Source of the DNA: an uncultured virus (IMG/VR IMGVR_UViG_3300035208_003294)
Lineage: Duplodnaviria; Heunggongvirae; Uroviricota; Caudoviricetes
Length of the DNA stretch: 20,000 nt
IMG/VR virus record: IMGVR_UViG_3300035208_003294
Reading direction: 5' to 3' (one strand)
The notes below the pieces were generated by a model. That model did no database searches, had not been told where the DNA came from, and saw nothing but the letters and a program-made list of their open reading frames with translations. A program made the translations under genes and the position numbers. Positions within the stretch are counted from its first letter, which is position 1. The number at the start of each line of letters is the position of its first letter. Shown here one piece after another: positions 2,498-18,229 of the stretch.

Positions 2498-5400
2498 TTA
2501 CCTCGTGTACGTTGTCCAGTTTATCTTGAAACTCTGGCTCAAGTTTGGTGGATTGTAGTAATCAGCCCAGAGCCATATCATCTGCGAGCCTCCGATACTG
2601 ATGTTATTGTATACTGTGTACCTGGTGTTCTCTGTGAAGTTCACCGCCATAGAAACATCTGAACTGTTCCCCCATTTTAAGGTGACATTCTGAATGGATC
2701 GGTTGACCCACAGAACTGCAGCCAAAACATCAGTATAATTGTTGCTGAAATTCAGTGCGCCAATGGTGGCAGACTGGCCGCTAATATTGACGTTCTTCTC
2801 ACTCCTATGCCTCGGGAAGAAATATATGTTGCTTATTCCAGAGGACTTACCTATTCGGGCATCATATTGACTCTCATAGGTAAGGTTCGAAAGGTCGAAA
2901 ATCAAATTCCCTCCCCAGATGCTTGAAACAGAAATGTTGTACTGACAAGTACCAGACCAGGAATAATTGGAACAATTGTTCAAGGGGAACGTTATTGCCA
3001 CCGGGCCCGGGAACGAACCATTCTGAGAATAGAAATTTGCTACTGTGCAGGATCCGCTAGATAGATTGATACTCACATTCTCTGGTGCCGGTGTCGTATT
3101 GCTTACCCAAACCGTCTGATTGACGAAATACGCATTACAAGGGGCCGAAATATTAAACGATGATCTAGTGCTGTTTATAGTTTCATTAAATCCTACCACG
3201 TCTACATAGTAGAATCCTGAAGCATTTGAATTTCTGCAGATCACGTTGAATCTGTTATAGCCCAGGTTCGATAAAGTAGTCATCTCCTTTGAAGCGCTTA
3301 TTGTTGAATTCACGAAAGTATCGTAGACATCGTTCACGTAGACGCTGGCGTTACAGGTCCCTATACCAAAGTAGAGTTCGGGAGTCCTATCACTGAAAAA
3401 CGTTCCATTAGTCGTGAGGTTCACGTCCTGGTTGGAATAAGTGAAAGTCTCGCTTATGTTGCTGAACCCCCCAACATCGTACTCAGTTACGTTGAAATAA
3501 TAAACCTCTGAAAAAAGATCTCCAATTATTGCCGAACAAAGGTTTGCAGAGCAGTTCATTACATATTGCGTTCCTGACCAGCTTAAGTTCGCGCTACTAA
3601 AGTTCACGTCTGAATATGAAGCGTTAATGAATACAGACCTGTTGAAAGCCTCAACAAAGTTATTTGTTGGACTCACAATAGAAACGCTCTGAGGCCTATT
3701 AAGAGTGAAAGAGACATTAGAGCTGTTCACCACATTTCCTGCAGTATCGACACAAGAAACATAAGCGCTATGCAGACCATCATCATAAGTATTCGCTACA
3801 TTGTGTGTGTATTCCACATTACTTGGGATTGAAGATAAAAGCCACCAAACAGCTTCTTCACCAAAATCTATTCCTCCCACATAATTCCAAATTGGATACC
3901 AAGAGGTTGTTCCATTTTGGCAGCTTAAGTTTTGTGTGTTCCACATATTGAAATATGATTTTAGGCGTAGGTTTAGCGTGGTTCCATATTCAAAACAAGA
4001 GGAAGGTATGGTCTCATTGTATAACCAATAACTGCTTCTTCCATAATATATTTTTGATGAATTTTGAGTATTTATGGGCTTGGTATAATTCACATAAAAA
4101 TAACTTGTGTCGCTCGTTCCATAACCACCTGTACTAAAAATTCCGTCGTAGTATTTTGTAGCTGGGTATGTCCCCGAGAAAGTGCCAGTATAATTATAGG
4201 TCCCTGTATTCAGTCCCCCACATGTAGTGGCTACGTTTGCAGTTTCCTGGTAACACCATTCGGATTCCGATTCAGAATCCTTTACCCCGTCTATAAATAA
4301 AGAGCAATTATAAGCATCTTCCGGACCCGATACTGTGTAATTAATATTTGGTTGTGAGGTAAATGATGCATTGAGTGACGAGTTCAACACGACAACAGTT
4401 CCACACGACGACGACCCATTTTGACATGATGACCCATCAAAATAGCATTGTTTACCATTTCCAGCACCGGTACCAGTATATCGTGATTCACAATCTGAAG
4501 GATTGGTTTCCAAAGTGCAGGATGAAATATACGTTCCGGTACAGGCTAATGTGGTGGTGGTGGTCGTCGTTGTTGTCGTAGTGGTTGTAGTTGTCGTAGT
4601 GGTTGTAGTTGTCGTGGTCGTGGTTACGTTGACTGTGAAGTATTGGCTTACCTGCGCTAGGTTTCCAGCTGTGTCGTTCGCGTAGACGGTCACAGAGTAA
4701 TTGCTATTTGACAGGTTCAACGTGATATTTTGGCAGGCTGATAAACTGATTGAGGCCGTGCTGTTGACTGAGTACCAGCATTGTTGAAGGTTCGTGTCTT
4801 GGGCAGTATAGTTCAAACTGATGTTCGCAATGCTATAAGTCGTATTCGCAGGAGATTGGATGGTGATGTTCGGAAGAATCGTATCAACTGTCAAAGTCCT
4901 GGTCTCGCTTGTTCCGTTGTTTCCTGACGAATCATTAGCCCAGCCATAGTATGAATACGTGCCAGAAGAGAGATTAGACATGTTCGCGTAGAACCTCCAT
5001 TCCGTGCTGTTATACTGGTTCCAAGTCCACACATTGGCCAACCGGTATACTGGGAATAAGTAAGAGGAATTCATACTTGAGAAGTTATTGTATACTTCTG
5101 TTGTATTCTGATACGTTGTGTAGATTTGAGATTCCGCAGAACCACTACAGCAGCGAAACCCGAGGTAGCCGGTCACGGCCGAAGGCGCGGCGGCCAGGCT
5201 GGCGCAGAACACGCCCGCAGCGGCCCCATGGAGCCAGGTGCCGCCCCGGAGAACCGCACGCCCGCTGGTCGTGTCGCCGTAGAAGTATACGTCGTCCATG
5301 CCGTATCTCCCGTCGTCGGCTGCGCTCGTCGTAGACCAGTTGCCGCTCGTTGTATTGATATAATACCACCCGCTCGTAGGACCCGGCGCAATGGTTGTAA

Positions 5401-6181
5401 CCGATTCGTTAACCCACTCCCATAGGTTCCCGACCAGGTCGTATACGCCTTCCGTTGAGCGGCAATTCGTCCTGGAACCAGTCAAACATACCCGGTTGTC
5501 AGCGTATGAGCCGTTAATCTGGCAGAAATAATTTGTATTACAATTCAACGAGGTATCGCTGTCGTCTCCCGGAATATAATGCCCTGATTCTCCGGTAGGC
5601 AGATAATAGACGGTTCCAAGAACGTTCGCCGCAGCAAGCCACTCATCCGAGGTGCAAAGGTGCTTTCCTGTGTTGGCGCACATCTGCCGAGCCTGCTTCT
5701 GCGAAACCCCGGCCAAAGGCACTACGTTGGGTCTACTTGTAGCATTAACGCTTGTCCCAGTATCGCTATCTATGCCTCCGAACACTCCGCTTACGGGAAC
5801 GCACAAGGACGCATTACAATACCCCTCAGACGTGTAGCTGGCGCAATTACTGCCCGGAGAGCCGTCGCATCCCGGAACACTCGCCTCATACTGGTCGATG
5901 CAGTACCCGCCCAACGCATCGATATACGACATGTTCCCGCTGCAATTCACCGCATGGAAAGTAGTGTTGGTCTCATTCCAGTTGAACTTGAAGGTGTCCA
6001 GGTTCTCCTCCTCTATTGAGATATTAACTTCTATCCAGTTCCTACCAATGATGCTTTGATTAGCTTCGGTAGGGGGCTGGAAGGAAAGATTAAGGGACTG
6101 AACGGAGACAATAGACGAAAATAAAAACAACGTTAAAGCTATTAAGCCTAGTTTTCCACCGGAAAAAACATTAATTTTCAT
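2498..6181 (-). CDS. Secreted modular surface glycoprotein 1 (1227 aa): Ig-like scaffold with inserted CLec/FGE-sulfatase-fold DGR-target domain, Ig repeat, poly-Thr linker, Cys-rich module, further Ig-like domains
   Basis: Signal peptide; YCIDQYEAS, QARQMC..GKHLCTSDEW, GVYDLVGNLWEWV and RGG.W...GFRCC (FGE/CLec fold); YANDTAGN-type archaeal Ig repeats; very many N-x-S/T sequons; no C-terminal TM. Confidence 0.85.
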   Translation of the reverse strand: MKINVFSGGKLGLIALTLFLFSSIVSVQSLNLSFQPPTEANQSIIGRNWIEVNISIEEENLDTFKFNWNETNTTFHAVNCSGNMSYIDALGGYCIDQYEASVPGCDGSPGSNCASYTSEGYCNASLCVPVSGVFGGIDSDTGTSVNATSRPNVVPLAGVSQKQARQMCANTGKHLCTSDEWLAAANVLGTVYYLPTGESGHYIPGDDSDTSLNCNTNYFCQINGSYADNRVCLTGSRTNCRSTEGVYDLVGNLWEWVNESVTTIAPGPTSGWYYINTTSGNWSTTSAADDGRYGMDDVYFYGDTTSGRAVLRGGTWLHGAAAGVFCASLAAAPSAVTGYLGFRCCSGSAESQIYTTYQNTTEVYNNFSSMNSSYLFPVYRLANVWTWNQYNSTEWRFYANMSNLSSGTYSYYGWANDSSGNNGTSETRTLTVDTILPNITIQSPANTTYSIANISLNYTAQDTNLQQCWYSVNSTASISLSACQNITLNLSNSNYSVTVYANDTAGNLAQVSQYFTVNVTTTTTTTTTTTTTTTTTTTTTTTTTLACTGTYISSCTLETNPSDCESRYTGTGAGNGKQCYFDGSSCQNGSSSCGTVVVLNSSLNASFTSQPNINYTVSGPEDAYNCSLFIDGVKDSESESEWCYQETANVATTCGGLNTGTYNYTGTFSGTYPATKYYDGIFSTGGYGTSDTSYFYVNYTKPINTQNSSKIYYGRSSYWLYNETIPSSCFEYGTTLNLRLKSYFNMWNTQNLSCQNGTTSWYPIWNYVGGIDFGEEAVWWLLSSIPSNVEYTHNVANTYDDGLHSAYVSCVDTAGNVVNSSNVSFTLNRPQSVSIVSPTNNFVEAFNRSVFINASYSDVNFSSANLSWSGTQYVMNCSANLCSAIIGDLFSEVYYFNVTEYDVGGFSNISETFTYSNQDVNLTTNGTFFSDRTPELYFGIGTCNASVYVNDVYDTFVNSTISASKEMTTLSNLGYNRFNVICRNSNASGFYYVDVVGFNETINSTRSSFNISAPCNAYFVNQTVWVSNTTPAPENVSINLSSGSCTVANFYSQNGSFPGPVAITFPLNNCSNYSWSGTCQYNISVSSIWGGNLIFDLSNLTYESQYDARIGKSSGISNIYFFPRHRSEKNVNISGQSATIGALNFSNNYTDVLAAVLWVNRSIQNVTLKWGNSSDVSMAVNFTENTRYTVYNNISIGGSQMIWLWADYYNPPNLSQSFKINWTTYTR
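4550..4624 (-). repeat. Poly-Thr coding repeat (25 ACN codons)
   Basis: Degenerate trinucleotide tract that includes a duplicated 18-mer (gttgtcgtagtggttgta on the + strand). Confidence 0.95.
5147..5260 (-). other. DGR variable region (VR)-like segment
   Basis: Encodes RAVLRGGTWLHGAAAGVFCASLAAAPSAVTGYLGFRCC. Only 5 A in 114 coding-strand nt, all within NNY codons at positions where CLec DGR templates carry AAY; the invariant codons contain no A. Confidence 0.8.
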
Positions 6182-6198
6182 TTTTTTAGGACATTAAA

Positions 6199-6357
6199 TT
6201 ATTTCTGGAATGTTCCCTGATACGCGGCAGGTGTAAGGCTTCCTGAAGTTGTGATCGTACCACACGCCGAGATAGCGAACACTGTTGAAGACAATACCAT
6301 CAGCGCCAACAAAATTCTCTTTATCCCTGAAAGCTTATACGTACTGGATCGTGACAT
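6199..6357 (-). pseudogene. Remnant of a fourth secreted surface-protein gene (signal peptide plus start of a beta-helix cap), 52 aa
   Basis: Hand translation: MSRSSTYKLSGIKRILLALMVLSSTVFAISACGTITTSGSLTPAAYQGTFQK*. ISACGTITTSGS resembles VTNCSTITTPGDY in the neighbouring protein, and similarity is lost after it. Confidence 0.55.
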
Positions 6358-8893
6358 TGTTCGAGTTCCCAACATAATAGTTCTTCGAGTAATTAGACAT
6401 CACACACCAATCTACCAGGATATTGTTCTGTCTATTAATGTATACGCCGTAGCCACTGCCTTCCCCTGTGAAGCTGGAACCTAGGCAGGTAAGGGATACA
6501 CTGTCTGCTGCAATCACGAAGCACGTAGAGTTGCTATGTTGTCCTGAAAGGATTACGTAATCGCCGGGCGTTGTGATTGTTGAACAGTTAGTTACTAGAG
6601 TATGGTTTACTACAAAATATTGTGTTGTCTGTGCAAGATTCCCAACACTATCATTGGCATACAATGTTATGTTATATGTCCCCTTGCTCAGGTTAAGGCT
6701 AACGTTATTACATGAGGAGAGACTTGTATTAGACGTACTGTTTATCGAATACCAACAACCACCCAAGTGTACATCGTAGACCGTATAGTTTAAACTAAGG
6801 TTCCCAGACACATAGGAAGTGTTTTCAGGGAATTGGATGGAGATAGACGGGGACGTAGTATCTACTGTGAAATACTGGCTTACCTGTGCAAGATTACCGG
6901 CAGTATCGTTAGCGTATACAGTAACGCTGTAATTGCTATCGGATAAGTTCAATGTAAGGTTGCTACAATCGGGTACGCTTACTGAAGGCGTGTTGTTCAA
7001 GGAATACCAGCACTGCTGTAAATGCGTGTCAATTACAGTGTAGTTCAAACTGATATTCGATATGATGTATGTAGTATTGGTTGGGCTCTGGATTGTTATA
7101 TTAGGCAATACTAAATCAACCGTCAACGTCCTGGTCTCGCTTGTTCCGTTGTTACCGGACGTGTCATTAGCCCAACCATAGTAGGAATAAGTGCCATCTG
7201 ATAAGTTCGTGAGATTAGCGTAGAAACGATACTCGGTGCTGTTGTATTTCTGGAACTCGGACTCATACTGGAACCAAATTTCAGAAGCAGATAAGGGGCG
7301 GTTGTAGATACGGAGTTCATCAAGAGTTCCATTTAAATTTCTAGTGTTTACTGAGTTATCAAATAAATACGTGGTTCCTGATGAAATATTAATTGCCCCT
7401 TTACCTACCGTATTTGATGAAGTTGAGAAAACCCCATTTTGATATATGCTAATATTTGTTAAATTTAGTATAATCGCAAAATGTGTCCAAGTATTTATTG
7501 AGATTGCATTTGGAGTGGTGGCAAGGAAAGTTATTGGCGTACTTCCATTTGACGTATCTACTTGTAGTATTCCCGTCGATGCATAAATAAATATTCTTAA
7601 ATTACCATTACTATCAATTATACGGGGTGTTGTTTCTCCGTATCCGCTTCTAGGATATAACCAAAAAGAAATAGTTGCATTATTTATTTCGGGAAATGAT
7701 GGTACTTGTGAAAGACAGTTTTTTCCAGGACAATCTAATCCAAGTTCAAACTTTCCAGGAAGGTAACTGAGATTAGCAGAGGTCATATTGTTCCCATATT
7801 TCGATATATCCACTGCATAGGTGCTATTCTCTCCTATTGCTGAATTATTATTGAAATTCAACGCCAACACAAGAGATGGGTCGTATATCGAATAGTTTGC
7901 CCCGTTCCAGTTGAACTTGAAGGTGTCAAGTGTTTCATTCGTGGAAATAGACACATTCACTTCCGAGTAATTAGCACCGATAACAGCACCATCATCAGGA
8001 GTAGGGGGAAGGAAGGAAAGAGACAACGGTATGACATCCGCAAGAGTGGTCGTCGTCGTAGTTGTCGTGGTTGTCGTTGTTGTAGTCGTTGTGGTTGTGG
8101 TTGTTGTAGTAGTGGTTGATGCAGCTATCGTAATGTTCCTGGAACTGCTCGTATTCGTTACCGCTCCAACAGAGCAATTCACGTTCCAGAGATATGATCC
8201 GTCGGCAAGAGTAGAGTTTGCAGTAATCACCGTAGCCGTATTATTCGTAGTGTTCCCGTTTGCTATGCTCCAATTCCAAGATACCTCGTCGAATTGGCTT
8301 GTTACCCCAGACGTAAGAGTATACCAACCAGTTCCATTAAAACAGTATATCCCATAGCTTCCGGCATCGATGGTGTTGCTGTAAAACCTGAACTGTTTAG
8401 GATCCTGCGCCATACATAAACTGCTAATCGCTACGGTATAATTATTCGCGAATCTAACATATTGGACGACCGATGAAGCGGTAGCCAAACCAGGGGAAGA
8501 AATATTCACATAAGCATATTCTCCAGTAACCGAGCCAGAAGCAGAAGTAGACCAATCTCCGTCGAACATGTAAGAGAGATTGTTCCACCCAGAGGTATTA
8601 GTCAACAATCCATTATAATTCAATCCACAAGAACCATCCCCCACACGAGCTTCACTGAAATTACCCTGAAAGCAAGGAGTCTGCGCAAGACCATATCCTG
8701 AGTTGTTCAAGAACAGTTGACAAGTATACGTGTCTTCATCTCCAGATACCGTGAAGTTGAAATCTGGAGTATTATCAGAAGTAATATTAGCTTCTTCGGG
8801 GGTATTAAGTATTATACTAAGGGCTTGAGCGGAGACTAAAGGTAGAGCTAAGATCAACAACAACGATCCCAAAAACAATTTTGCATTTTTCAT
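6335..8893 (-). CDS. Secreted modular surface glycoprotein 2 (852 aa): Ig scaffold with Cys-containing insert, poly-Thr, Ig scaffold with LamG-like insert, two Ig repeats, truncated beta-helix start
   Basis: Signal peptide; LamG/concanavalin-like motifs TISFWLYP, WTHFAI and GTLDELRIYNRPLSASEI; YANDTAGN repeats; C-terminal CSTITTPGDYVI...GYGVYI NosD-like start; sequon-rich. Confidence 0.85.
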   Translation of the reverse strand: MKNAKLFLGSLLLILALPLVSAQALSIILNTPEEANITSDNTPDFNFTVSGDEDTYTCQLFLNNSGYGLAQTPCFQGNFSEARVGDGSCGLNYNGLLTNTSGWNNLSYMFDGDWSTSASGSVTGEYAYVNISSPGLATASSVVQYVRFANNYTVAISSLCMAQDPKQFRFYSNTIDAGSYGIYCFNGTGWYTLTSGVTSQFDEVSWNWSIANGNTTNNTATVITANSTLADGSYLWNVNCSVGAVTNTSSSRNITIAASTTTTTTTTTTTTTTTTTTTTTTTTLADVIPLSLSFLPPTPDDGAVIGANYSEVNVSISTNETLDTFKFNWNGANYSIYDPSLVLALNFNNNSAIGENSTYAVDISKYGNNMTSANLSYLPGKFELGLDCPGKNCLSQVPSFPEINNATISFWLYPRSGYGETTPRIIDSNGNLRIFIYASTGILQVDTSNGSTPITFLATTPNAISINTWTHFAIILNLTNISIYQNGVFSTSSNTVGKGAINISSGTTYLFDNSVNTRNLNGTLDELRIYNRPLSASEIWFQYESEFQKYNSTEYRFYANLTNLSDGTYSYYGWANDTSGNNGTSETRTLTVDLVLPNITIQSPTNTTYIISNISLNYTVIDTHLQQCWYSLNNTPSVSVPDCSNLTLNLSDSNYSVTVYANDTAGNLAQVSQYFTVDTTSPSISIQFPENTSYVSGNLSLNYTVYDVHLGGCWYSINSTSNTSLSSCNNVSLNLSKGTYNITLYANDSVGNLAQTTQYFVVNHTLVTNCSTITTPGDYVILSGQHSNSTCFVIAADSVSLTCLGSSFTGEGSGYGVYINRQNNILVDWCVMSNYSKNYYVGNSNNVTIQYV
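8045..8116 (-). repeat. Poly-Thr coding repeat (24 ACN codons)
   Basis: Degenerate trinucleotide tract between the two scaffold modules. Confidence 0.95.
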
Positions 8894-9333
8894 TTTCGTC
8901 GATAATGAATATATCCGGTGTATGAAACGATATAAGACTTAAGTTCTTCGATGCCCGCGCTCTCGAGGATCACTGCCAATGATATGCCGGTTGTTATCTC
9001 GAATGGCGTAGGAAAGAGGAACTCTTTCTGCTGCTTGAAGTAAGCCCCTGCGAAACTTGTATAAACCAGGCCGGATTTGGTACTTAGGTATACCCTATCA
9101 ATGAATTCAGCCTCCCCACACGATACGTTCACGCTGGAGAGCATGAAGGTCTTGTTAGCTGGAACGGCGTATAGGTCTGTAGTTAATTCCACCCCCACAG
9201 TCGTTATAATGGGGACCATTGCCGAGACGCAAGAATGGTCGTTCCCATACTCTGGAAGCGCCGTTCGTTCTATGACTATCTTTGAAGGGGAAAGCTTTAC
9301 AATACCCGGTTCCTTTAGTGTGCTCGTGCTCAT
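8890..9333 (-). CDS. Hypothetical beta-rich protein, possibly virion-associated
   Basis: 147 aa; ATGA overlap with the downstream gene; LYAVPANKTFMLSSVNVS pattern typical of small phage beta-sandwich proteins. Confidence 0.6.
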   Translation of the reverse strand: MSTSTLKEPGIVKLSPSKIVIERTALPEYGNDHSCVSAMVPIITTVGVELTTDLYAVPANKTFMLSSVNVSCGEAEFIDRVYLSTKSGLVYTSFAGAYFKQQKEFLFPTPFEITTGISLAVILESAGIEELKSYIVSYTGYIHYRRK

Positions 9334-9348
9334 GTTTCATTATTCGCT

Positions 9349-9936
9349 TTATAGGCTTCTGAGATAGTTGATAGCCTTAATGTTCGAAAGCTCTTTCTTA
9401 CCTATCGTGATGTCGTTGCTTAATGAATCGATCAATGCCTGGGCACCGACCACTCCGAACTGGCCGACTATGTCGTACTTGACGCAGTCCAATGCGGCCA
9501 TCTTGGTTACTATCCTCTGGATAGAACCGTGTTTGCTCGGGTCAAATACAGACTTGAAAGAATACCTCATTATTCCGTCCATATCGCATTCCGCTGTCTT
9601 TATGAAACCCCTGATCATGGTATCTGTGATATCGATCGTCAGGTCCGTTAGTTGTTCCCTGACCAACGCTATCGTGGTATAAGTCACTATGTCATAAGGC
9701 GCCTGCCTGGCAATGCTATATGGGCCCCCGACCAATGCGACATTTAATAAACGTATCTTATACCAGGTGGTATCATCGTGATCGTTGTCGTTATAGCTCA
9801 AAACCCAATCTCCGTCCCCGTCCTTCGCATCTATCGCTGCAAGAAGCTCGAAAGTGCCCGTCTCAGTAGCGCAGTGTTTGATCTCCACGTAAGCCACTGT
9901 GCTGCTGGCCGGTTGATCCCAGGTGATAGTTGGCAT
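9349..9936 (-). CDS. FN3-like domain fused to a head-tail adaptor-like helical domain
   Basis: N-terminal TITWDQP...YVEI...SYND...TWYKIR (FN3-like); C-terminal YTTIALVREQL...IRGFIKTAECDMDG (HK97 gp6/SPP1 gp15-like start), paralogous to the next gene. Confidence 0.6.
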   Translation of the reverse strand: MPTITWDQPASSTVAYVEIKHCATETGTFELLAAIDAKDGDGDWVLSYNDNDHDDTTWYKIRLLNVALVGGPYSIARQAPYDIVTYTTIALVREQLTDLTIDITDTMIRGFIKTAECDMDGIMRYSFKSVFDPSKHGSIQRIVTKMAALDCVKYDIVGQFGVVGAQALIDSLSNDITIGKKELSNIKAINYLRSL

Positions 9937-9937
9937 T

Positions 9938-10300
9938 TTATCCGTTTGTTCTTACACTAAATGTCGGTTCTACTGCAGTTCCCTTCTTCGTTCCTACCTT
10001 GACCATTATCTGCTCCTGCTGCGTTTCAAAGCTCTTCAAAGCTTCCCTATAGTTCTGGACAGTATCGAAGTATTCCGGGCCCAGGTATCTGATACAGCTT
10101 GCGCAGGCATACGCCTTACTTGCTATATCCGCTCCGCACTGGGCTACTTCCGCATCGGTCATATTCGTTGAAAGCCCCAGGTGATCATTGACGTGCTTGT
10201 CTCCGTCAGCTATGAAAGACTCTATATTTGCCGTCGGCACGTTCACTATGTCGAACAAGTAATGCATCAATCTCACCGCCGCGACTGTTGTATAAGCCAT
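9938..10300 (-). CDS. Head-tail connector/adaptor-like protein
   Basis: MAYTTVAAVR...IESFIADGDKHVNDHLG pattern and about 120 aa size, typical of gp6/gp15-like adaptors; GGAGGT SD upstream. Confidence 0.65.
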   Translation of the reverse strand: MAYTTVAAVRLMHYLFDIVNVPTANIESFIADGDKHVNDHLGLSTNMTDAEVAQCGADIASKAYACASCIRYLGPEYFDTVQNYREALKSFETQQEQIMVKVGTKKGTAVEPTFSVRTNG

Positions 10301-10309
10301 TGTAATGTA

Positions 10310-13186
10310 TTACCTCCTCCTGCGATATATAGTCACCAATATAGTTGCCATGCCAAGGGCCCCCAAGAGATAGATGATGTTCCTGGAGATCCCACTTGCC
10401 CTATAGCTCGAGACTATTATTGCCCTGTTGCGTTCTATTGAGACATTGAATAAGCAAGTAGTTAAATTCTCTCCCGTTATCTTTGCATTCCTGAAAGCAT
10501 AATCACAGGGAGACGTTGAATTGATCCCTAGAACCATGTCTGATACATTAAACCCTGAGAAAGATAGATGATCGTTTCCTATGAAGGTTATGTTCGTTGA
10601 ATTCTCGAAATAGACATCTTCATTCATACCTTCGAAATAATCTACTGGACCAACCCCGTACCAAAGAGATACGTTATGTGAATCGGTGGATTGTTCCCAG
10701 ACAAGGTAACCAGAGCTGTTGACCATTAAAGAAGATAACGAACCGGAATCATTCTTGTACCACATGCTGTTTGGGGTGTTGTTTCCTGCGGTGATGTTCA
10801 CCGGACCACTGCCAGAAACATTACTGATAATGACCTGGATGAGGGAAGAGTTCTTAACGGAAACAAAGGCGTTTACGATAGTGCCGGAAGGGGGAGTGAT
10901 GGAGAGATTGGTTTGAGAATACCACTGCATGTCAGTAGGCAAAGAAATGTTGATTTGAGAAGAAGAGATGAGGTTAGGTAGACCAAAAATCAAGTAATCA
11001 TTAAATTGTAGGGTAACATTGTTAACAACAGAACTATTCGCATTTGCAAAACTATTTCCTGAACGATTAATTTTATAGTAAACTTGTGGAATTGCCATGT
11101 AGCCTTGTATTAATGTGCTATTCAGTCCATTCCTCCACGAAAAAACACTTGAAACATTTTCAGGAATAAAATAAGTATCAGCATCTACAAGGTTTGTAGG
11201 CTTCTGTGAACTTGTATTCCAGTGATTAAGAGAAAAGTCGTGAGTGATATTCTGATTGCTAGCTCCTTGTAACCATAAATCAACATAGAAACCAGAGCAA
11301 GTATTATTTGCTACTATCCAGTTTTTAGCAGCGGTTGTAGTGATATATGATATGTTGTCTGTTGATAGTTCGTTATTTGTTGACCTCCAAAGTCCATATA
11401 GTTCTCCAAAGAAAGCACATGAACCTGGGTTATGGTATTGGTAAGTTAGTGTTTGGGATAGATTTATAAATGGATATGCCGAAATAGTATTATTAACGAA
11501 TGACCCATTATTACAGTTATCAAATGCTGCAAATCCGGTGCTTCCAATACCAAACATTACGTTGTTCTGGACTGAAACATTTGATACATTCATACAACGA
11601 ATACCAAGATTATACCCATCTGAATTGAACGTAATGTTTGAGAACGTATTTCCACTCGCAGACAAATCTCTATTGACAAGTCCTGACCAGGCTGTGTTAC
11701 CGATGAGTAATCCTATATCGCAATTATATATTGTGTTATTTTCTGCTTTAGAACCAATTCCATAAATCCCCATACAATTACCAACTGTCCATGCAGCAGA
11801 TGACGCATCATGTGAAACGCTGTTCTTTATTGTTCCATTTATAGAATAAGAATAAATGGGAGATTTCTCGGCATTACAACTATTTACAGTACCATTAACG
11901 CTGCTTCCAGATAGAAGAATAATGCCTTTACTACAGTTTATTACACTCACATTAAAAACTGTATTATTACTTCCTCTATCCTCTACTCCTTCATCATAGC
12001 CTTGGACAGTTAGGTTCTTCACAACTGAATTTGTTCCTCTCATCGAGATTCCTGCAAAAGAACCATTCCCAATTAATGTAAGATTTCCATCTCCGGTCAG
12101 TGTTTGATTGTTACCAGTTAATAGAAATATCCCTTCATATCCTGTTGAATTTATTTGATAGCTTCCTGAACAAATATGTAGTTCTGTGTTGTCCACACCA
12201 AATGTTCTTATGTATGCTGAAAAACAACGATAAAGATTTTGAATATTTGTTTGACCGATTATGTTGCTAGTATCGTTAGCCCAGCCATAATAGGTATATG
12301 TACCAGATGAGAGATTCGTTACGTTCACATAGAAGCGGTACTCCGTCGAATTGTATTTCTGGAACTCAGAGCGGTAATGCAAGGCTATTTCTAATGCTGA
12401 CAAGGAACGATTATACATCCTAAATTCGTCAATAGATACTGTATGATTCAACTCAGAGTCTGCAAGATATGGAACCGTAGTCATAGGATTCATTACTCCA
12501 GTAAATGGCTTAGAACATTGTAATGCCCCATTTAGATATATTGAAATGTTTGTTCCTGAATATACTAAAGCATAGTGAAACCAACCTAAAGGCACTGTTC
12601 CACAGCCGTCGTTAAGTGTTGCCGTAGAATTTGAAACAACAAACTTGAAAATACCTCCTTCAATTCTAAATTTGTATTGATTCCAACTAGACATAAAAAT
12701 ATTGAAATTTGCAGATAGATTTGTTGTATTAACCCATGCCATTTGAGTATATGTTGTCCCTACATTTGATATTATTGGACAACGAATATTTGTTGCAACA
12801 TTTGAAGTGCTAACTGCATTTTCATATTTCCCTGCAATTATTGTGAGGGTTGAATTACAAACATTGTTGAGTTTGCTTATATCAATAGCCGTTGTCGCAT
12901 TCTCTCCTATCGCTGAATTATTATTGAAATTCATCGCTAACACTAACGAAGGGTCGTATATTGAGTAATTCACCCCATTCCAGTTATAGATGAACGAATC
13001 CAAAGAAGCATTGCTGAAATTACCCGTAATCGTAATATTCGACTCAACATAATTCGCACTGATAACAGCACCATCCAAAGCAGTAGGGGGCTGGAAGGAA
13101 AGATTAAGGGATTGAGCGGAGACAAAAGAAGAACTCACCATGACTAGAATTAGAAGTAGAAATGCCTGGAAGGTCTTCTTGATCAT
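10310..13186 (-). CDS. Membrane-anchored surface glycoprotein 3 (958 aa): Ig scaffold with LamG-like insert, parallel beta-helix (pectin-lyase/NosD-like), C-terminal TM
   Basis: Signal peptide; YTQMAWVN, WFHYALVY and IDEFRMYNRSLSALEI; repeated beta-helix rungs (NNTIYNCDIG, GNTFSNI); C-terminal IIYLLGALGMATILVTIYRRRR anchor; GAGGT SD. Confidence 0.85.
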   Translation of the reverse strand: MIKKTFQAFLLLILVMVSSSFVSAQSLNLSFQPPTALDGAVISANYVESNITITGNFSNASLDSFIYNWNGVNYSIYDPSLVLAMNFNNNSAIGENATTAIDISKLNNVCNSTLTIIAGKYENAVSTSNVATNIRCPIISNVGTTYTQMAWVNTTNLSANFNIFMSSWNQYKFRIEGGIFKFVVSNSTATLNDGCGTVPLGWFHYALVYSGTNISIYLNGALQCSKPFTGVMNPMTTVPYLADSELNHTVSIDEFRMYNRSLSALEIALHYRSEFQKYNSTEYRFYVNVTNLSSGTYTYYGWANDTSNIIGQTNIQNLYRCFSAYIRTFGVDNTELHICSGSYQINSTGYEGIFLLTGNNQTLTGDGNLTLIGNGSFAGISMRGTNSVVKNLTVQGYDEGVEDRGSNNTVFNVSVINCSKGIILLSGSSVNGTVNSCNAEKSPIYSYSINGTIKNSVSHDASSAAWTVGNCMGIYGIGSKAENNTIYNCDIGLLIGNTAWSGLVNRDLSASGNTFSNITFNSDGYNLGIRCMNVSNVSVQNNVMFGIGSTGFAAFDNCNNGSFVNNTISAYPFINLSQTLTYQYHNPGSCAFFGELYGLWRSTNNELSTDNISYITTTAAKNWIVANNTCSGFYVDLWLQGASNQNITHDFSLNHWNTSSQKPTNLVDADTYFIPENVSSVFSWRNGLNSTLIQGYMAIPQVYYKINRSGNSFANANSSVVNNVTLQFNDYLIFGLPNLISSSQINISLPTDMQWYSQTNLSITPPSGTIVNAFVSVKNSSLIQVIISNVSGSGPVNITAGNNTPNSMWYKNDSGSLSSLMVNSSGYLVWEQSTDSHNVSLWYGVGPVDYFEGMNEDVYFENSTNITFIGNDHLSFSGFNVSDMVLGINSTSPCDYAFRNAKITGENLTTCLFNVSIERNRAIIVSSYRASGISRNIIYLLGALGMATILVTIYRRRR

Positions 13187-13199
13187 CTTGGACCTCTCA

Positions 13200-13547
13200 C
13201 TAAGCGTAATAGATTGCTAGACCAAAAGCTCTATTCGCCGTCTGGCCCCCGCTAGTCGTGTGTTGAACTGTCAGCTCCCCGGCGAAGCTCTTCCCAATCG
13301 TCAGAGAATGAGAAGTATTCGCAGCGCATGCCCCGGAGTTATAAACGGATTTACCATTCTCGTCCAGGAGAATCAATGTAGCCGTAGTAGCGCCATCTAG
13401 TACAGGCACATCGAAAGTAGCATCGAGCATTGTACCACAAATGCGTATTGTGGTCGATATCAGATCATTATCTGTCGCGAAGAGCAGAGTCAGATCGACT
13501 TCTTTCCTGCTGACGCTCCCTGGAGCGTATACGTTTCCTCTTGCCAT
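13200..13547 (-). CDS. Hypothetical protein, probable small virion beta-sandwich protein
   Basis: 115 aa, Thr/Gly/Ala-rich, tightly packed in the structural operon. Confidence 0.65.
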   Translation of the reverse strand: MARGNVYAPGSVSRKEVDLTLLFATDNDLISTTIRICGTMLDATFDVPVLDGATTATLILLDENGKSVYNSGACAANTSHSLTIGKSFAGELTVQHTTSGGQTANRAFGLAIYYA

Positions 13548-13548
13548 T

Positions 13549-13863
13549 TTAAATCTTTATGAACTTTTCGTAAGTCGTCATGTATTCCTTCGTTAGTTTC
13601 TTTTGCTCGTCTAGTTCTTTATAACCCATTGTTATGAGCATCTTCAAAAGCTTTAGCATGTGATTTGATATGTTGAAATCTTTTGTTTCTTCTGGTTCCC
13701 AAACATAATCCCCTTCAGAAATCCCGGCCTTACGTTTTGAAAGCTCTTCTGGAGTTAATTGCAAAATCTCAAAGAACTCAGCGCAGAGCGTACATAATAA
13801 TTCTGAGCTATATTTTGGAAGAAGATTGATCAATGAAATCCTTTCGGTATAATTAGCTTGCAT
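13549..13863 (-). CDS. Hypothetical helical phage protein
   Basis: 104 aa; ERISLINLLPK...LDEQKKLT...YEKF; 1-nt gap to the next gene; function unknown. Confidence 0.65.
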   Translation of the reverse strand: MQANYTERISLINLLPKYSSELLCTLCAEFFEILQLTPEELSKRKAGISEGDYVWEPEETKDFNISNHMLKLLKMLITMGYKELDEQKKLTKEYMTTYEKFIKI

Positions 13864-13897
13864 TGTATAATATCTTGTGCTGTCCTATCTTAAATAC

Positions 13898-14332
13898 TCA
13901 AATCCCAAACATATCGTCGTTGTCTTCTACGCGGCAAATTGGGATCATCATTGCTTGGCCGGCTTCCCTTGGATTCCTAAACGGGGGCCACGTTTTGTTC
14001 TTTGGTACCGTTGGAACCAATGAAAACCCAGGAAGCAGCCTTTTGAATATGAAGTTATTAACGAATTTAGAAAGCATTTTTTGAACTTTCGTTATCCGTG
14101 AATACGGGAATACGCTGAGCGTGTATGATATCAGTTGATCTTCGCAAGTAGAAGGAAAACGGATATCATAAAATCTTAGTTCTCTAACAACGGGTTTGAC
14201 ATTTACCGGGGGAACTATGCCAAGTTTGATAAATCCCTCTTTTCTTGCGCTGTCGTCAAACTTGATTGACTGCATATAATCCTCAAACCTGGAGAGATTA
14301 TCTGCTTCAACTGCTACGAACCAATGAGTCAT
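13898..14332 (-). CDS. Hypothetical protein
   Basis: 144 aa, co-oriented and fills the gap; no function recognised. Confidence 0.7.
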   Translation of the reverse strand: MTHWFVAVEADNLSRFEDYMQSIKFDDSARKEGFIKLGIVPPVNVKPVVRELRFYDIRFPSTCEDQLISYTLSVFPYSRITKVQKMLSKFVNNFIFKRLLPGFSLVPTVPKNKTWPPFRNPREAGQAMMIPICRVEDNDDMFGI

Positions 14333-14335
14333 AAT

Positions 14336-14352
14336 AAAAAGAAAGAAAAAAA
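14336..14352 (-). terminator. Archaeal oligo-U terminator candidate
   Basis: The minus strand reads TTTTTTTCTTTCTTTTT just after the stop at 14360. Confidence 0.5.
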
Positions 14353-14359
14353 TGGTTTT

Positions 14360-14800
14360 TCAGGTCAGTTCAGTCCATGCCGGAGACGCTTTAGTTCCCT
14401 GGTTTGAATAGACTTTGCCTGTCGCTGTGTCTATTGCCATGGATCCAACGCCGCATGTTCCTGCACCATCGCCAGAGGTTCCACTTGAAGGGGTGGAAGC
14501 TGTGGTTATGATGAAGATGTTGTCGGATGCCGGGCATGATAGGACTCTTGCGTACACAGGAGATGCTTTCGTTCCTGCGTTCACGTGGACCACTCCATTA
14601 GTCCTGTCTATGCACATTCCACCAACACCTATCACAGCTGCCCCGTCTCCAGATGTACCGTTTGTAGGCGTGCCTTCCTTTGTCATGAAACCCACGCTGT
14701 TATTCAGCATAAGATAGGTTCCTGAAAAGGTGAAAGTAGTCGCAGCGCTGCTTGTTATCAGCGGATCCAAAACGCTCTTATGCGTATCGAGACTTCTCAT
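14360..14800 (-). CDS. Internally duplicated head decoration/fibre-like protein
   Basis: Two ~45-aa units (GTPTNGTSGDGA..GVGGMCIDRTNG..NAGTKASPVY and STPSSGTSGDGA..GVGSMAIDTATG..NQGTKASPAW); directly after the capsid gene; AAGGAGG SD at 14811-14817. Confidence 0.65.
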   Translation of the reverse strand: MRSLDTHKSVLDPLITSSAATTFTFSGTYLMLNNSVGFMTKEGTPTNGTSGDGAAVIGVGGMCIDRTNGVVHVNAGTKASPVYARVLSCPASDNIFIITTASTPSSGTSGDGAGTCGVGSMAIDTATGKVYSNQGTKASPAWTELT

Positions 14801-14821
14801 TTTTGTGTTTCCTCCTTAGAT

Positions 14822-14832
14822 AAAAGAAAAAA
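14822..14832 (-). terminator. Oligo-U tract after the major capsid gene
   Basis: The minus strand reads TTTTTTCTTTT shortly after the capsid stop. Confidence 0.4.
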
Positions 14833-14849
14833 TATATGCCGCGACCAGA

Positions 14850-15713
14850 TTAGGTCGTCGGTATCTTTGCGAAGGCGTCTATGTCGTGTATCTCCACTGT
14901 GAGCCACTCACTCAGGGATACAGGGAACAGGTCTTCCTCAGTCATGGTGTACGTCTTCAGCTTGGGGTTCTGGCTTATGACCAGCTCGGCTGCGTCAGGA
15001 TCTTTGCATCCTATGTAGACGTTTCCTGCAGTCACGTGAGCTGATTTCACCAGGAAATCCTCTTTCTTCTTCGCGCCCGGGAACAGGTCTACTATCGTCA
15101 TCCAGTAGGGCTGCCTCTTGCTGTCAAGACCGTTCAGCTTGTTTATGTCTGTCGGGTTCCCCAGTATGTACGAGGGCTCGAAGTTGGTGTTCAACGTTGC
15201 TATCGCATTCAGGATGTCCTGGTGCATATCGCAGGCTTCACTCTGATCCCATGCTCCGTTGTTGGTGATGGTGTTCGCTGCTGCAACACAACCGGTTATC
15301 CCTGTTATGTTAGCTGCGGAGTATCCGTTCAGGGCGAGTTTGTCCTCTTTCCTGTGGATCATCTTCGTGCATCTCTCGACTTCCTTCGCTTTCAGCTTCG
15401 GGTCCTGTGCTAAGTCCCTTTCGTGGACGTAGAAACTCTCTTTCAGCTGGTAGATGGTGAAGTTCTTCGTGGAAACGAAGGTGTTTCCGACATTCCCTCT
15501 CGCGCCCTTGGCGGTAATGAGTATGTCTGAATCGTCTGTTGCATCCATGATAGTCACAACGTCTGTGTCTATCGTCGAACCAACGTTCCTTATGGGCAAT
15601 ATCTTCCTTGCCACCATGTTGTCCTTATAATCCTCTGCGTAGGCCGCAAGGATTTTTGTCCATTCCTCCACATTGCGTGCAGGAATTCCCATCGCGGAAT
15701 CTGATGCTATCAT
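14850..15713 (-). CDS. Major capsid protein, HK97 fold, encapsulin/Linocin_M18-like
   Basis: 287 aa; MVARKILPIR, IYQLKESFYVHERDL, MIHRKEDKLALNG..AANITGI and C-terminal LTVEIHDIDAFAKI; follows DUF2213 and the cement genes. Confidence 0.8.
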   Translation of the reverse strand: MIASDSAMGIPARNVEEWTKILAAYAEDYKDNMVARKILPIRNVGSTIDTDVVTIMDATDDSDILITAKGARGNVGNTFVSTKNFTIYQLKESFYVHERDLAQDPKLKAKEVERCTKMIHRKEDKLALNGYSAANITGITGCVAAANTITNNGAWDQSEACDMHQDILNAIATLNTNFEPSYILGNPTDINKLNGLDSKRQPYWMTIVDLFPGAKKKEDFLVKSAHVTAGNVYIGCKDPDAAELVISQNPKLKTYTMTEEDLFPVSLSEWLTVEIHDIDAFAKIPTT

Positions 15714-15725
15714 TTTAGTGTGTGT

Positions 15726-16361
15726 TTATCCTCTCAACAGGCATTTTACCTGTACGAGCTTCTTCATGTTCTGCGAGCTGTACGAAAACTTCAGCGCAGT
15801 TTTGAAAGTTACCTGTGTCGTACTATCCACTGTGGCAATCTGAACTACTTCAGAGTCTGTCGCAGTAGCATCTGTCGCTCCCTGTAGGTAGACCATGTCG
15901 CCTGCTAAGAAATAAGCAGTCGATGTGACAGTTGCTGTCTTTGCTCCTGCTGTCGCGGTGCTCATCGCGGTCGTGTAGTTAGAAACTTCAGCATCCTCGA
16001 GCGCCCTTGCGCATGTGGTCGAGACTGCTTCAGTCGTCGCGCTCTCTCTTACCATAAGCCCTGAATCGTTCGCGAGCTTTAGCAGATCGCCTGCAGCAAC
16101 GTCTGTTCCCCCACCAACTACTGGAAGGTAAACTATCCCTGCAACTATGACGGGTACTGGATCATAAGTGCTGTAACATCCGGGCTGAGTCTTTTCGACA
16201 ATGTCATCCTCGGCTATGCCGATGAATCCTCTCGTGTTCGCTCCGTCAACGGCAACAACGACTGTTCCCGCTGCAGAGTATTTCACCGCCGAGCCGAATG
16301 GAATCTCTCCGGCGGCAGTCATGTGTTCCGTGTGCCATACATCTACGGCTATTCTTTTCAT
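15726..16361 (-). CDS. Capsid cement/decoration-like protein, paralog B
   Basis: AAGEIPFGSAVK...FIGIA...DPVPVIVAGIVYL...VAAGDLL...ARALEDA pattern; position between scaffold and capsid genes. Confidence 0.7.
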   Translation of the reverse strand: MKRIAVDVWHTEHMTAAGEIPFGSAVKYSAAGTVVVAVDGANTRGFIGIAEDDIVEKTQPGCYSTYDPVPVIVAGIVYLPVVGGGTDVAAGDLLKLANDSGLMVRESATTEAVSTTCARALEDAEVSNYTTAMSTATAGAKTATVTSTAYFLAGDMVYLQGATDATATDSEVVQIATVDSTTQVTFKTALKFSYSSQNMKKLVQVKCLLRG

Positions 16362-16374
16362 TTTGTAGTTGAAT

Positions 16375-17007
16375 TTATGTTCGTAATTTCGCTCTCACCT
16401 GGCAGATCTTCCTCACGTTCTTTGAACTGTAGGAGAATCTGCAAGGTTCTTTCAGCGTCATCTGAGTTCCTGAGTCTATCGACTCCACTTGCGCTATCTC
16501 TGAATCTGTCGCCAGCCCGGAAGTTCCTTCCAGGAGAACCATGTTGCCTGCGGCAAAATATGTCGTATCATCCACCGTAAGAACTTTTGAACCTGCAGTT
16601 CCTGTTGTGAGCGAGCATGTGTATAGGGACGGGTCCATATTCTCAAGAGCCCTTGCGCACGTTGCAGATGCTGACTCATCAGTAGCGCTCTCAAGAGCGA
16701 AAAGCCCTAGATCGTTTGCTATTGACAATAGGCATCCTGCAGTTATCGCGGTCCCTCCGCCGACAATTGGGAGATTGACTATCCCGGCAGTTATGACAGG
16801 AACCGCCTGCCCCCACTGATAACAACCGGCTCTCTGCATGCCGCAATAATTATCCTGGGCAACGCCCAGAAAACCCCTGGTGTTTGACCCATCGATCGCT
16901 TTGACCACCGTTCCTGCCCCGGAACGTATAACCGCCGCTCCGAAGAATATCTCTCCTGCGGCAGTGTAGTGCTCTACAGCCCATACATTGACTGAAACCC
17001 TTTGCAT
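16375..17007 (-). CDS. Capsid cement/decoration-like protein, paralog A
   Basis: Colinear full-length paralog of 15726..16361 (TAAGEI.FG.AV, NTRGF.G.A, LANDxGL, TCARALE, ATDSE, FSYSS.N). Confidence 0.7.
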   Translation of the reverse strand: MQRVSVNVWAVEHYTAAGEIFFGAAVIRSGAGTVVKAIDGSNTRGFLGVAQDNYCGMQRAGCYQWGQAVPVITAGIVNLPIVGGGTAITAGCLLSIANDLGLFALESATDESASATCARALENMDPSLYTCSLTTGTAGSKVLTVDDTTYFAAGNMVLLEGTSGLATDSEIAQVESIDSGTQMTLKEPCRFSYSSKNVRKICQVRAKLRT

Positions 17008-17008
17008 T

Positions 17009-18076
17009 TTAGACTTTCCTCCTGTTTGAAATCTTAGTGTAGACGTCGTCTACCATCTTCTGCGAGTCGGAGTCCCTAGTCAATCCGTCTGCAGAAATCT
17101 GCTTGCTTGACTTGTTCTCCTTCGCTATCTTCTCGATCTTCACATGCTCGTTCGTCAGGTCGCAAACCGTCATCTTCTCCAGTTGCTCCCTTGGCATGGA
17201 ATCGGTTATCGCCATGATCTTGCCTATAAGCTCTGTTTTCTTCTCTGCCATCAGCTCGTCCAGCTGCTTTGCCTTGGCTTCAAGATCAGAAACCTTCTTG
17301 ACCTGGGCCGCGTCATTGCTTATCTGGTTGATGGTCTTCGCCTGTGCCTTGATACCGCAGCCGTCAGCGAGACTGCATCTCCCCGATTTCACAATCGCCG
17401 TATGGTTCGAGAGCATGTTCGTCTGGACGTAGTCATACTTCTGGTCGTTGTAAACTCCAGGCTTCTTGACTATCTTGCAGTTGAATCCTAGAGAAACTTC
17501 TCTCGGGCCTTTCTCGTCTTGCATGAGCTTTATGGCTTCTGCCCCATCTATTTCAAAGTCCTGGATTATGGCGTTGTTGTATCTTGGATTCCTCACAAAA
17601 CCGTTTACTTCTGCAGGCTCTGTAACCATCCCTATTTTTGGGTGTTCGATAGTTATTGCATTCGCGTCCATGAATCTCACGGCCTTTTTGAGTTCCTCTG
17701 GATCCTTGAGGACTTTCTTACCATTATAGTCCTGCACACCGGGTTTGCATACGACTACATCAGGAATCACGAGTTTTGAATCTGCAAACCTGAAATTCTT
17801 GGAATCAAGAACTATGTCCACAGAATCATTCGCTATCAGAACCGATTCATCTGCAGAATCCATTGAACTTGTGAGCTCGGGTTCTGGATAAGCGGTTTCA
17901 GAAGTAGTTGTTGATTCGGTGCCTGTCGAAGCGGTCTCTTCCGCAGGAGAGATACTTGGTTCGCCTTCGGTTGCATTAGCTGACTGGTCGGTCCCAGCTT
18001 CGCTGTAAACTATGCCATCCTTATCGCACTTCACTGATCCTGAAATTTGTGACCAGGGAATGATAACTTCTACCAT
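17009..18076 (-). CDS. DUF2213-family prohead protease/scaffold protein
   Basis: KPGVQDY, PEEL, AITIEHP and REVSLGFNC...PGVY...YDYVQTNMLSNHTAIVKSGRC match DUF2213 motifs; coiled-coil scaffold C-terminus; acidic Ser/Thr-rich N-terminal extension. Confidence 0.85.
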   Translation of the reverse strand: MVEVIIPWSQISGSVKCDKDGIVYSEAGTDQSANATEGEPSISPAEETASTGTESTTTSETAYPEPELTSSMDSADESVLIANDSVDIVLDSKNFRFADSKLVIPDVVVCKPGVQDYNGKKVLKDPEELKKAVRFMDANAITIEHPKIGMVTEPAEVNGFVRNPRYNNAIIQDFEIDGAEAIKLMQDEKGPREVSLGFNCKIVKKPGVYNDQKYDYVQTNMLSNHTAIVKSGRCSLADGCGIKAQAKTINQISNDAAQVKKVSDLEAKAKQLDELMAEKKTELIGKIMAITDSMPREQLEKMTVCDLTNEHVKIEKIAKENKSSKQISADGLTRDSDSQKMVDDVYTKISNRRKV

Positions 18077-18217: not shown

Positions 18218-18229
18218 AAACAAACAAAT

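Follow-up and report, generated by a model that had tools for sequence, protein, structure and literature searches.

We have analyzed a 20,000-nucleotide stretch of DNA from an uncultured tailed virus (IMG/VR record IMGVR_UViG_3300035208_003294, Caudoviricetes), hereafter the window, in which three genes (genes 1, 2 and 3, coding for P0001, P0002 and P0003) appear to specify three paralogous, secreted and heavily N-glycosylated proteins of the adhesin type. We read them, with a probability of about 0.75, as a fibre module resembling that of virus ANMV-1 that arose by domain-insertion paralogy, each protein carrying an immunoglobulin-like (Ig) pedestal from which a lectin-type guest domain is looped out. 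The pedestal would be a Big_13-like Ig β-sandwich interrupted by a complete lectin-type domain, genes 2 and 3 holding two diverged laminin G-like (LamG) domains and gene 1 holding, at the LamG position, a C-type lectin (CLec) of the family targeted by diversity-generating retroelements (DGRs). The sequences on either side of the guests would then resemble each other as a result of purifying selection on a single folded domain, of which they form the two halves, and not because they serve as recombination arms. The proteins would presumably bind glycans on the cell surface, three different heads widening the range bound, and the CLec may have been imported by an old recombination, with a variable repeat (VR) that a DGR would have written in the past and that is perhaps now frozen. 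An earlier interpretation of the same DNA (the sequence-only reading) had seen here a two-tier, antibody-like system of cassette exchange and hypermutation; the underlying observation is partly confirmed, and the structural half of that interpretation is supported while its mechanistic half is not, neither tier being shown.

All coordinates are those of the window, in which nearly all long open reading frames (ORFs) are on the minus strand and 21 ORFs were scanned (Table 1). From the N-terminus, P0001 consists of a signal peptide, the N-terminal half of an Ig domain (Ig-N), the CLec, a linker, and the C-terminal half (Ig-C), followed by a complete Ig domain, then a poly-Thr tract and finally a long C-terminal part. 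P0002 has a signal peptide, an N-terminal domain, a poly-Thr tract, an Ig domain with inserted LamG (Ig[LamG]), two complete Ig domains and a C-terminal part, and P0003 a signal peptide, Ig[LamG] and a long C-terminal part, closing with a hydrophobic helix followed by RRRR. Indeed, the motifs SL.LSF.PPT ... LD(T/S)F.(F/Y)NWN and YNSTE(W/Y)RFY ... YYGWAND are found on the two sides of the insert in all three proteins, which bears out the notion of a common split scaffold interrupted at the same loop, the guest being placed between the 'NWNGxNYSxY' and 'YNSTEYRFY' strands of the Big_13-like Ig. The identity of the inserts, proposed to be a CLec in P0001 and divergent LamG-like domains in P0002 and P0003, agrees with Pfam, and the coordinates estimated for them agree with those of the inserts in Table 1: PF03781 (FGE-sulfatase/CLec) matches residues 151–345 of P0001 (E 6.3e-12; 46.1 bits, cut-off 23.3), and PF13385 (Laminin_G_3) reaches 77.5 bits in P0002 and 63.5 bits in P0003 (cut-off 27.6), the LamG of gene 3 being 42% identical to that of gene 2. 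No NCBIfam family scored above its cut-off for any of the three proteins, and a PDB sequence search with the gene 1 CLec gave SUMF2 (E 2e-4) and EgtB as the only matches.

Whether the two halves belong to one domain was analyzed against a profile of 30 uninterrupted Ig-like domains (those following the module in genes 1 and 2), the halves being taken from a 40-row alignment. Once the insert columns are removed, the scaffold aligns by hhalign with columns 3–93 of the 94 in the Ig profile (98.6%, E 7e-16), the N half alone covering columns 3–44 (91%, E 1e-6) and the C half alone columns 56–93 (97.6%, E 4e-12). By these alignments the two halves make up a single Ig-like (Big_13-like) domain. The AlphaFold2 (AF2) run that had been suggested for the scaffold halves was carried out for the gene 2 module (P0002 residues 285–600, 40-row alignment), and the confidence values of the model would fit one domain around the insert, with a mean per-residue confidence (pLDDT) of 91.2, a predicted template-modeling score (pTM) of 0.90, both halves at 96–98, and four to five strands predicted ahead of the LamG and five behind it. 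Model residues 55–260 superpose on 5hon_B with Z 22.5 and a root-mean-square deviation (rmsd) of 2.3 Å over 187 aligned residues; the matches from fold searches with this model are all LamG-like chains and thus uninformative on the Ig part. When the two pedestal halves of P0002 (residues 3–56 and 258–312, numbered as in the alignment) were folded as separate chains, the score was 0.42 with the best control at 0.01, contact agreement being at least 96% and partner pLDDT at least 74 in these runs. In the benchmark of this procedure, 116 out of the 157 solved complexes attained this mark, as did 2 out of the 215 mismatched pairs, 18 of the 157 complexes and both passing mismatches lying at 0.60 or below. 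Split-chain docking thus lends weak support to the pairing of the halves, and since the two chains come from a single domain, its pass may reflect likeness to solved Ig folds.

The distribution of the module is consistent with this view. The whole P0002 module matched 178 proteins, many of which cover 95–100% of it, the named ones coming from Micrarchaeia, Aenigmarchaeota, Altiarchaeia and Nano- or Woesearchaeota, while the N-half profile, compared with 1.84 billion representatives, retrieved 477 clusters (E≤1e-3). These are mostly large archaeal surface proteins, many with 2000–7600 residues and up to 16 matched stretches each; Ig[LamG] is also present in viral contigs L002, L004, L005, L006 and L016. 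For a catalogue of the guests each N half was paired with the next C half, in a first set of 144 proteins (90 pairs), drawn with queries themselves containing LamG or CLec, and in a second set of 130 new proteins (377 pairs). Uninterrupted pairs numbered 4 and 82 in the two sets (86 of 467 in total), single LamG guests 63 and 226, and LamG with nested or extra domains 21 and 65; a CLec nested inside LamG (P0126) and a CLec alone (P0001) occurred once each, both in the first set and neither in the second, and four pairs, all in the second set, had neither LamG nor CLec detected. Of these four, two turned out to be tandem Ig domains that had been wrongly paired and one a LamG of divergent sequence, which leaves a single unclassified insert of 169 residues (P0268). 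Overall, 381 of the 467 pairs have an insert, LamG is present in all but two of those, and the CLec-in-Ig arrangement of gene 1 is unique among them. The search with the scaffold halves that the sequence-only reading had suggested shows several kinds of guest in the same loop, LamG being nearly the sole one. As far as the catalogue goes, domain insertion is a habit of the family, and the pedestal itself receives LamG almost without exception; among archaeal surface proteins the Ig[LamG] module is both old and common, and LamG is its standard guest.

Further guests are nested within LamG at recurring points, such as LVIVD repeats in P0041 and RCC1 repeats in P0095, and intein-like sequence was seen by eye inside the LamG of P0119 and P0095; P0124 is also among the proteins whose LamG guest hosts further insertions. 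In P0126, P0137 and P0140 the CLec is placed before the last LamG strand. The gene 1 linker was considered as a remnant of that strand by analogy with these three proteins and rejected, the comparison yielding 2.6 bits, a value equaled by 51 of 200 shuffles.

The three proteins differ from their neighbors in features of export. Hydrophobic N-terminal leaders ending in SVQS, SAQA and SAQS are recognized by eye, and N-x-S/T sequons amount to 62–68 per 1000 residues (gene 1: 64) compared with 0–19 in the other genes. Archaeal N-glycosylation at sequons would need export. By their leaders and sequon density, the three proteins are predicted to be exported glycoproteins with lectin heads.

As to the surroundings of these genes, the order from high to low coordinates is protease, two cement-like genes, capsid, four small ORFs, gene 3, three small ORFs, gene 2 and gene 1. 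In ANMV-1 the annotated order is protease, cement-like, capsid, tail fibre, DGR target and reverse transcriptase (RT), the same as in the window up to the target, and ANMV-1 is the sole match of the capsid protein among 50,697 phage records (33% identity over 100%). The product of 9349–9936 resembles the ANMV-1 'capsid tail fiber', with tblastn identities of 32% to L001 (32383–32613) and 42% to L002, and viral contigs L027 and L002 have several window genes in common (26–42% identity, tblastn). The ANMV-1-like capsid and gene order, the tail-fibre likeness and the genes shared with L027 and L002 argue that the region holds the structural and fibre genes of a head-tail virus remotely related to ANMV-1, one that probably infects a DPANN archaeon. 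Scans of viral contigs with the capsid protein, with P0001 residues 28–440 and with the 29-nt repeat described below gave no match. The last ~210 residues of P0001 (2498–3146, residues 1012–1220) are 35% identical to the C-terminus of a 1375-residue protein of L002 (15504–19628), the likeness being confined to this part and the heads being different. It has the look of a conserved domain serving attachment or anchoring, the distal part being variable, and the restriction of the likeness to the last ~210 residues suggests that the Ig[CLec] head was gained in the lineage of this virus.

The similarity of the flanks is the point at which domain paralogy and recombination arms can be told apart. 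The four exact DNA matches quoted by the sequence-only reading were all located, namely 29 nt at 6069/13083, 23 nt at 5976/7905, 26 nt at 4896/7128 and 22 nt at 7839/12912; besides the poly-Thr tract they are the only exact repeats of at least 20 nt in the window, the longest in 20 shuffles being 12–16 nt. To call the flanks near-identical in DNA is, however, an overstatement: the aligned halves have 56–79% nucleotide and 48–89% amino-acid identity, their proportion of synonymous differences (pS) is 0.58–0.96, at or near saturation, and self-blastn yields nothing longer than stretches of 383 nt (71.8%) and 205 nt (72.7%). Silent sites this close to saturation, at such nucleotide identities, indicate that the flanks are conserved as protein. 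Trees of flanks and LamG (FastTree, 125–126 rows, one module per protein kept from 223) place this in a wider frame, since family-wide the rate of change is about three times lower in the flanks than in LamG (0.32 vs 0.94 as the median end branch), which is what purifying selection on the pedestal next to a fast-evolving head would give.

Several observations weigh against the reading we favor. The exact runs exceed a codon-usage null in four of six comparisons (p<0.0005, 0.0115, 0.008 and 0.0045; the others 0.13 and 0.90) and a stricter same-codon-flag shuffle in three of four (0.006, 0.034 and 0.030; the fourth 0.26), so that some DNA-level exchange between the paralogues is likely. The GC content at third codon positions (GC3) of the LamG inserts lies below that of their flanks, at 0.27 vs 0.54 for 7247–7882 (p 9e-6), 0.27 vs 0.44 for 12356–12955 (p 0.005) and 0.41 vs 0.63 in L002 9983–12487 (p 0.001). 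The packing of the halves in three dimensions is a prediction read from profile alignment, pTM and pLDDT, and the fibres of tailed viruses do not usually have signal peptides or a membrane anchor at the C-terminus. The exact runs suggest short (micro) gene conversion tracts between the paralogues; gene conversion would homogenize the flanks, and this is no demonstration of cassette exchange. Four unrelated viral contigs have no GC3 contrast between insert and flank, and the core virion genes of the window have a GC3 of 0.5–0.66; the contrast would fit imported cassettes or, alternatively, a selected codon preference at positions where the residue is conserved.

It is possible, though on balance rather unlikely, that the three proteins are not virion parts at all and would instead be cell-surface proteins encoded by the virus, exported to and anchored in the membrane of the infected small archaeal cell, where they would alter adhesion or exclude other viruses. 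The Sec-type leaders of all three, the hydrophobic helix and RRRR seen by eye at the end of gene 3, a sequon density of 62–68 per 1000 residues set against 0–19 in the virion genes, and the fact that the close homologues are all large cellular surface proteins of DPANN-type archaea would all agree with such a role. The genes lie, however, inside the structural block, between the head-tail genes and the ANMV-1 tail-fibre homologue, and L002 keeps an Ig[LamG] gene and the gene 1 C-terminal domain at matching places, both of which speak for parts of the virion.

A different question is whether the gene 1 CLec is still being diversified. By its relatives it belongs to a family of true DGR targets, being 56% identical to P0124 and 57% to the DGR target of L080 (its own GC3 being 0.65), and RTs adjoin the CLec loci L080, L084, L085, L096, L099 and L106 in a scan of metagenomes. 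L080 (1–5266), a metagenome contig, is a compact canonical DGR with the target ending at 1185, the VR at 1057–1177, the template repeat (TR) at 1685–1805 and the RT at 1969–2982; its VR has 15 mismatches to its TR, 14 of them at TR adenines, and the RT follows 160 nt further on. The VR-like part of gene 1 has 40 mismatches to the L080 TR over 119 nt, 19 on the 26 adenines of this TR, which is a relative's, and 21 on other bases. Moreover, in 10 of 28 related CLec loci the 80 nt that follow the VR contain the motif AATCT(G) two to four times, with a mean of 1.04 per 80 nt over a background of 0.13, and these repeats may be a family-specific cis element for DGR homing. Position sets gene 1 apart: the CLec is at the very C-terminus in 8 of 11 compared homologues, ends 0–6 residues before the stop in all 28 metagenome relatives that reach the profile end, and ends within 10 residues of the stop in 14 of 16 genome relatives. 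A scan of genome contigs with the CLec alignment found distant relatives only (≤35%), none with pedestal halves.

The sequence-only reading had taken DGR mutagenesis as the second tier of diversification; the CLec is indeed of the DGR-target type, but neither TR, RT nor Avd is found in the 20 kb. No TR was detected in the window by blastn with word size 7, nor when both strands were scanned with tolerance for changes at adenines (at most 40% mismatch, and no more than 6 non-adenine mismatches per 90 nt). No RT family was found by Pfam among the 21 ORFs, and when three related RTs and an ORF from an Avd region were compared with the window by tblastn, all matches had E>1. A candidate hairpin 3' of the VR-like segment scored a z of −0.87, and no structure was common to three relatives. 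We thus think it unlikely that gene 1 is a live DGR target whose internal VR would be rewritten by a remote TR and RT through cis elements in the coding sequence. Such a target would account for a closest CLec relative that is a canonical DGR, for the differences at 19 of 26 TR adenines (against only 21 at the other aligned bases) and for the two AATCT motifs that follow the VR-like part, a feature shared with 10 of 28 related loci; in ANMV-1 the genes have this order too, with the target and then the RT at the end, and the homologues P0126, P0137 and P0140 also have internal CLecs. On the other hand, the searches, on either strand for TR and in six frames for RT and Avd, found none of these, although the sequence covered extends from the VR by 2.6 kb downstream and by 14 kb upstream, and the related viruses L002 (with terminal repeats) and L027 (estimated complete) have neither an RT nor an FGE domain in their records. 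In the available text of a survey of these systems (PMC8144416), VRs lie at C-termini, which is attributed to cis elements required for homing, and the CLec is C-terminal in 28 of 28 metagenome relatives. The VR-like part is also identical in the contigs of two runs containing this DNA, a weak point since both may be sources of it. From a third run, X3, a 969-nt contig aligns on 5092–5265 with 30 differing letters, many of them paired on codon positions 1 and 2; the pattern would be as between two DGR-written VRs, the contig being a relative's and not that of gene 1.

The proposal that the conserved halves are recombination arms, by which cassettes would be swapped among the three genes or with a donor pool as programmed diversification, fares worse, and we regard it as very unlikely. 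The exact runs of 22–29 nt at or near both insert edges are longer than expected, and the likeness among the genes is mosaic, gene 1 being closest to gene 3 where the N half begins but to gene 2 where it ends and in the C half, while genes 2 and 3 match best over the N half and the beginning of LamG. The compositional distinctness of the LamG inserts, limited to this lineage, and the three kinds of guest known family-wide from the same loop (LamG, CLec and the unclassified insert of P0268) would also fit. Against this, near-saturated silent sites argue that no recent exchange spans the flanks, which are equally conserved, as protein, in hundreds of unrelated proteins. Flank and insert trees have the same nearest neighbors (P0013 and P0027) and no supported conflict, although few branches are supported, many are long, and the comparison has little power. 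Scans with Pfam and PHROGs found no recombinase or donor cassette array in the window. The sequence-only reading had also asked for chimeric joints between the flank of one gene and the insert of another; these were sought in contigs, and the two runs containing this DNA have none, their contigs matching the window over 4500–13200 with zero differing letters, a weak result since contigs drop rare variants and both runs may be sources of this DNA. The only joints seen come from the third run, of relatives, or lie at poly-Thr tracts. Quite improbable, too, is a broader scheme in which the Ig pedestal would be a general socket of DPANN-type surface proteins and their viruses, guests entering by recombination in the halves, and a captured DGR-written CLec with its AATCT cis elements and a remote TR and RT would hypermutate an internal loop domain, joining cassette choice to hypermutation much as the sequence-only reading had it.

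Two features at the ends of the window lie outside the module. The sole long plus-strand gene, 46–1509, matches the PHROG 'protease' family phrog_20754 (E 2e-28) and has a carboxypeptidase-regulatory-like domain; its homologue in L002 adjoins fibre genes. In the divergent intergenic region beside the protease gene, at 18128–18218, two 25-nt direct repeats ending ATTGAAAC are spaced by 28 nt, the first matching Rfam CRISPR-DR7 with 42.7 bits (gathering score 37) and the second with 21.7 bits. The repeat has one exact occurrence in one other viral contig, L232, which has nothing else in common with the window, and the spacer has no exact match in viral contigs; the repeats may be a virus-borne mini-array or solitary repeat units.

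Table 1. Features of the window, with the evidence for each.
Feature	Coordinates	Strand	Evidence and remarks
Gene 1 (P0001, 1227 aa)	2498..6181	-	ORF and translation; Pfam PF03781 and Big_13
Gene 1 Ig-N half, residues 29-76	5954..6097	-	Alignment; local profile match E 8e-23; 55% aa identity to gene 2 half
Gene 1 guest, CLec/FGE-sulfatase-type fold, residues 77-347	5141..5953	-	PF03781
VR-like segment of CLec, residues ~307-346, internal to ORF	5144..5263	-	Gapless alignment to L080 TR; GC3 0.82-0.88
Two AATCT motifs just 3' of VR-like segment, in coding sequence	5122..5133	-	Motif count
Gene 1 linker from CLec to Ig-C half, residues 348-389	5015..5140	-	Comparison with last LamG strand, 2.6 bits
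Gene 1 Ig-C half, residues 390-433	4883..5014	-	89% aa and 79% nt identity to gene 2 half, pS 0.65; holds 26-nt match
Gene 2 (P0002, 852 aa)	6335..8893	-	ORF and translation; Pfam
Gene 2 Ig-N half, residues 289-337	7883..8029	-	Alignment; AF2 pLDDT 96-98
Gene 2 guest, LamG/ConA-like jelly roll, residues 338-549	7247..7882	-	PF13385 E 1.5e-21; AF2
Gene 2 Ig-C half, residues 550-593	7115..7246	-	hhalign to complete Ig profile
Three small genes between genes 3 and 2	8890..10300	-	ORF calls, tblastn, ANMV-1 annotation
Gene 3 (P0003, 958 aa)	10310..13186	-	ORF and translation; Pfam
Gene 3 Ig-N half, residues 26-77	12956..13111	-	Alignment; includes 29-nt match at 13083
Gene 3 guest, LamG, residues 78-277	12356..12955	-	PF13385 E 3.2e-17
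Gene 3 Ig-C half, residues 278-321	12224..12355	-	Alignment, local profile match
Upstream virion module: protease, two cement-like, HK97-type capsid, four small ORFs	13200..18076	-	Pfam and PHROGs
HK97-type major capsid protein	14850-15713	-	Pfam/PHROGs
Two adjacent cement-like paralogues upstream of capsid gene, N-termini similar	15726-16361, 16375-17007	-	PF22758, phrog_563
Head maturation protease	17009-18076	-	Pfam/PHROGs

Taken as paralogous insertions into an Ig pedestal, these genes define a unit that recurs in the giant surface proteins of ultra-small archaea, namely an Ig-like pedestal from which a LamG is looped out, and this unit would explain why short, strongly conserved motifs flank hypervariable lectin domains. 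A full-text literature search found no description of the Ig[LamG] module or of an Ig-inserted CLec. Gene 1 would place a DGR-type variable lectin in mid-protein, as opposed to the C-terminal VRs reported in the available text of PMC8144416. If the internal VR were still written, the C-terminal constraint would be softer than thought; if it is frozen, gene 1 would be a clear case of a captured, orphaned DGR target. A tailed archaeal virus with three exported glycoproteins bearing different lectin heads offers a lead on how viruses of DPANN archaea may recognize cells.

Among known systems, DGR targets with a C-terminal CLec (Bordetella phage Mtd, ANMV-1 AdtA and DPANN targets) come close in that the gene 1 CLec is 57% identical to a locus with VR, TR and RT (L080), its VR-like segment differs from the TR of that locus with an adenine bias, and ANMV-1 shares the order protease, capsid, fibre and target. 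Gene 1 departs from them in that its CLec and VR-like part are internal (residues 77–347 of 1227) and looped from an Ig, in a window without TR, RT and Avd. DGR targets have been proposed to be modular and to undergo intragenic recombination (PMC8144416, in the text available).

The 'evolved Dit' tail proteins of siphophages, in which, according to the available parts of PMC7291167 and PMC7533335, carbohydrate-binding modules (CBMs) are inserted in loops of the Dit galectin domain, likewise present such a module in a loop of a β-sandwich of a viral adhesion protein. They differ in host domain, virus group and guests (here LamG and CLec, not BppA-type CBMs) and in the signal peptides and sequons present here. 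No Dit family was found in Pfam and PHROGs scans of the window proteins, and the comparison is one of functional analogues only. A lectin of the ConA/LamG type grafted on a small structural module is also seen in modular type IV pilins, such as Streptococcus sanguinis PilC (PMC9934059, as far as its available text describes it), whose structure 7oa8_A aligns with the gene 2 model with Z 14.5 and an rmsd of 3.5 Å over 182 residues; unlike PilC, the proteins studied here have, by eye, no pilin-type N-terminus, and the carrier is an Ig-like domain in long multi-domain viral proteins. The best structural matches of the gene 2 insert are LamG/ConA-like CBMs (domain 4 of the GH43 arabinanase AbnA and the CBM40 of sialidases), the chains being 5hon_B, described above, and 4c1w_A, which matches the gene 2 model at Z 16.6 and an rmsd of 2.4 Å over 161 residues; a shared fold alone shows no function. 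Judged against the available text of these sources, looped-in CBMs (evolved Dit), grafted lectins (pilins) and CLec targets of DGRs are already known, and what would be new is the placement of lectin guests, a CLec among them, in an Ig pedestal.

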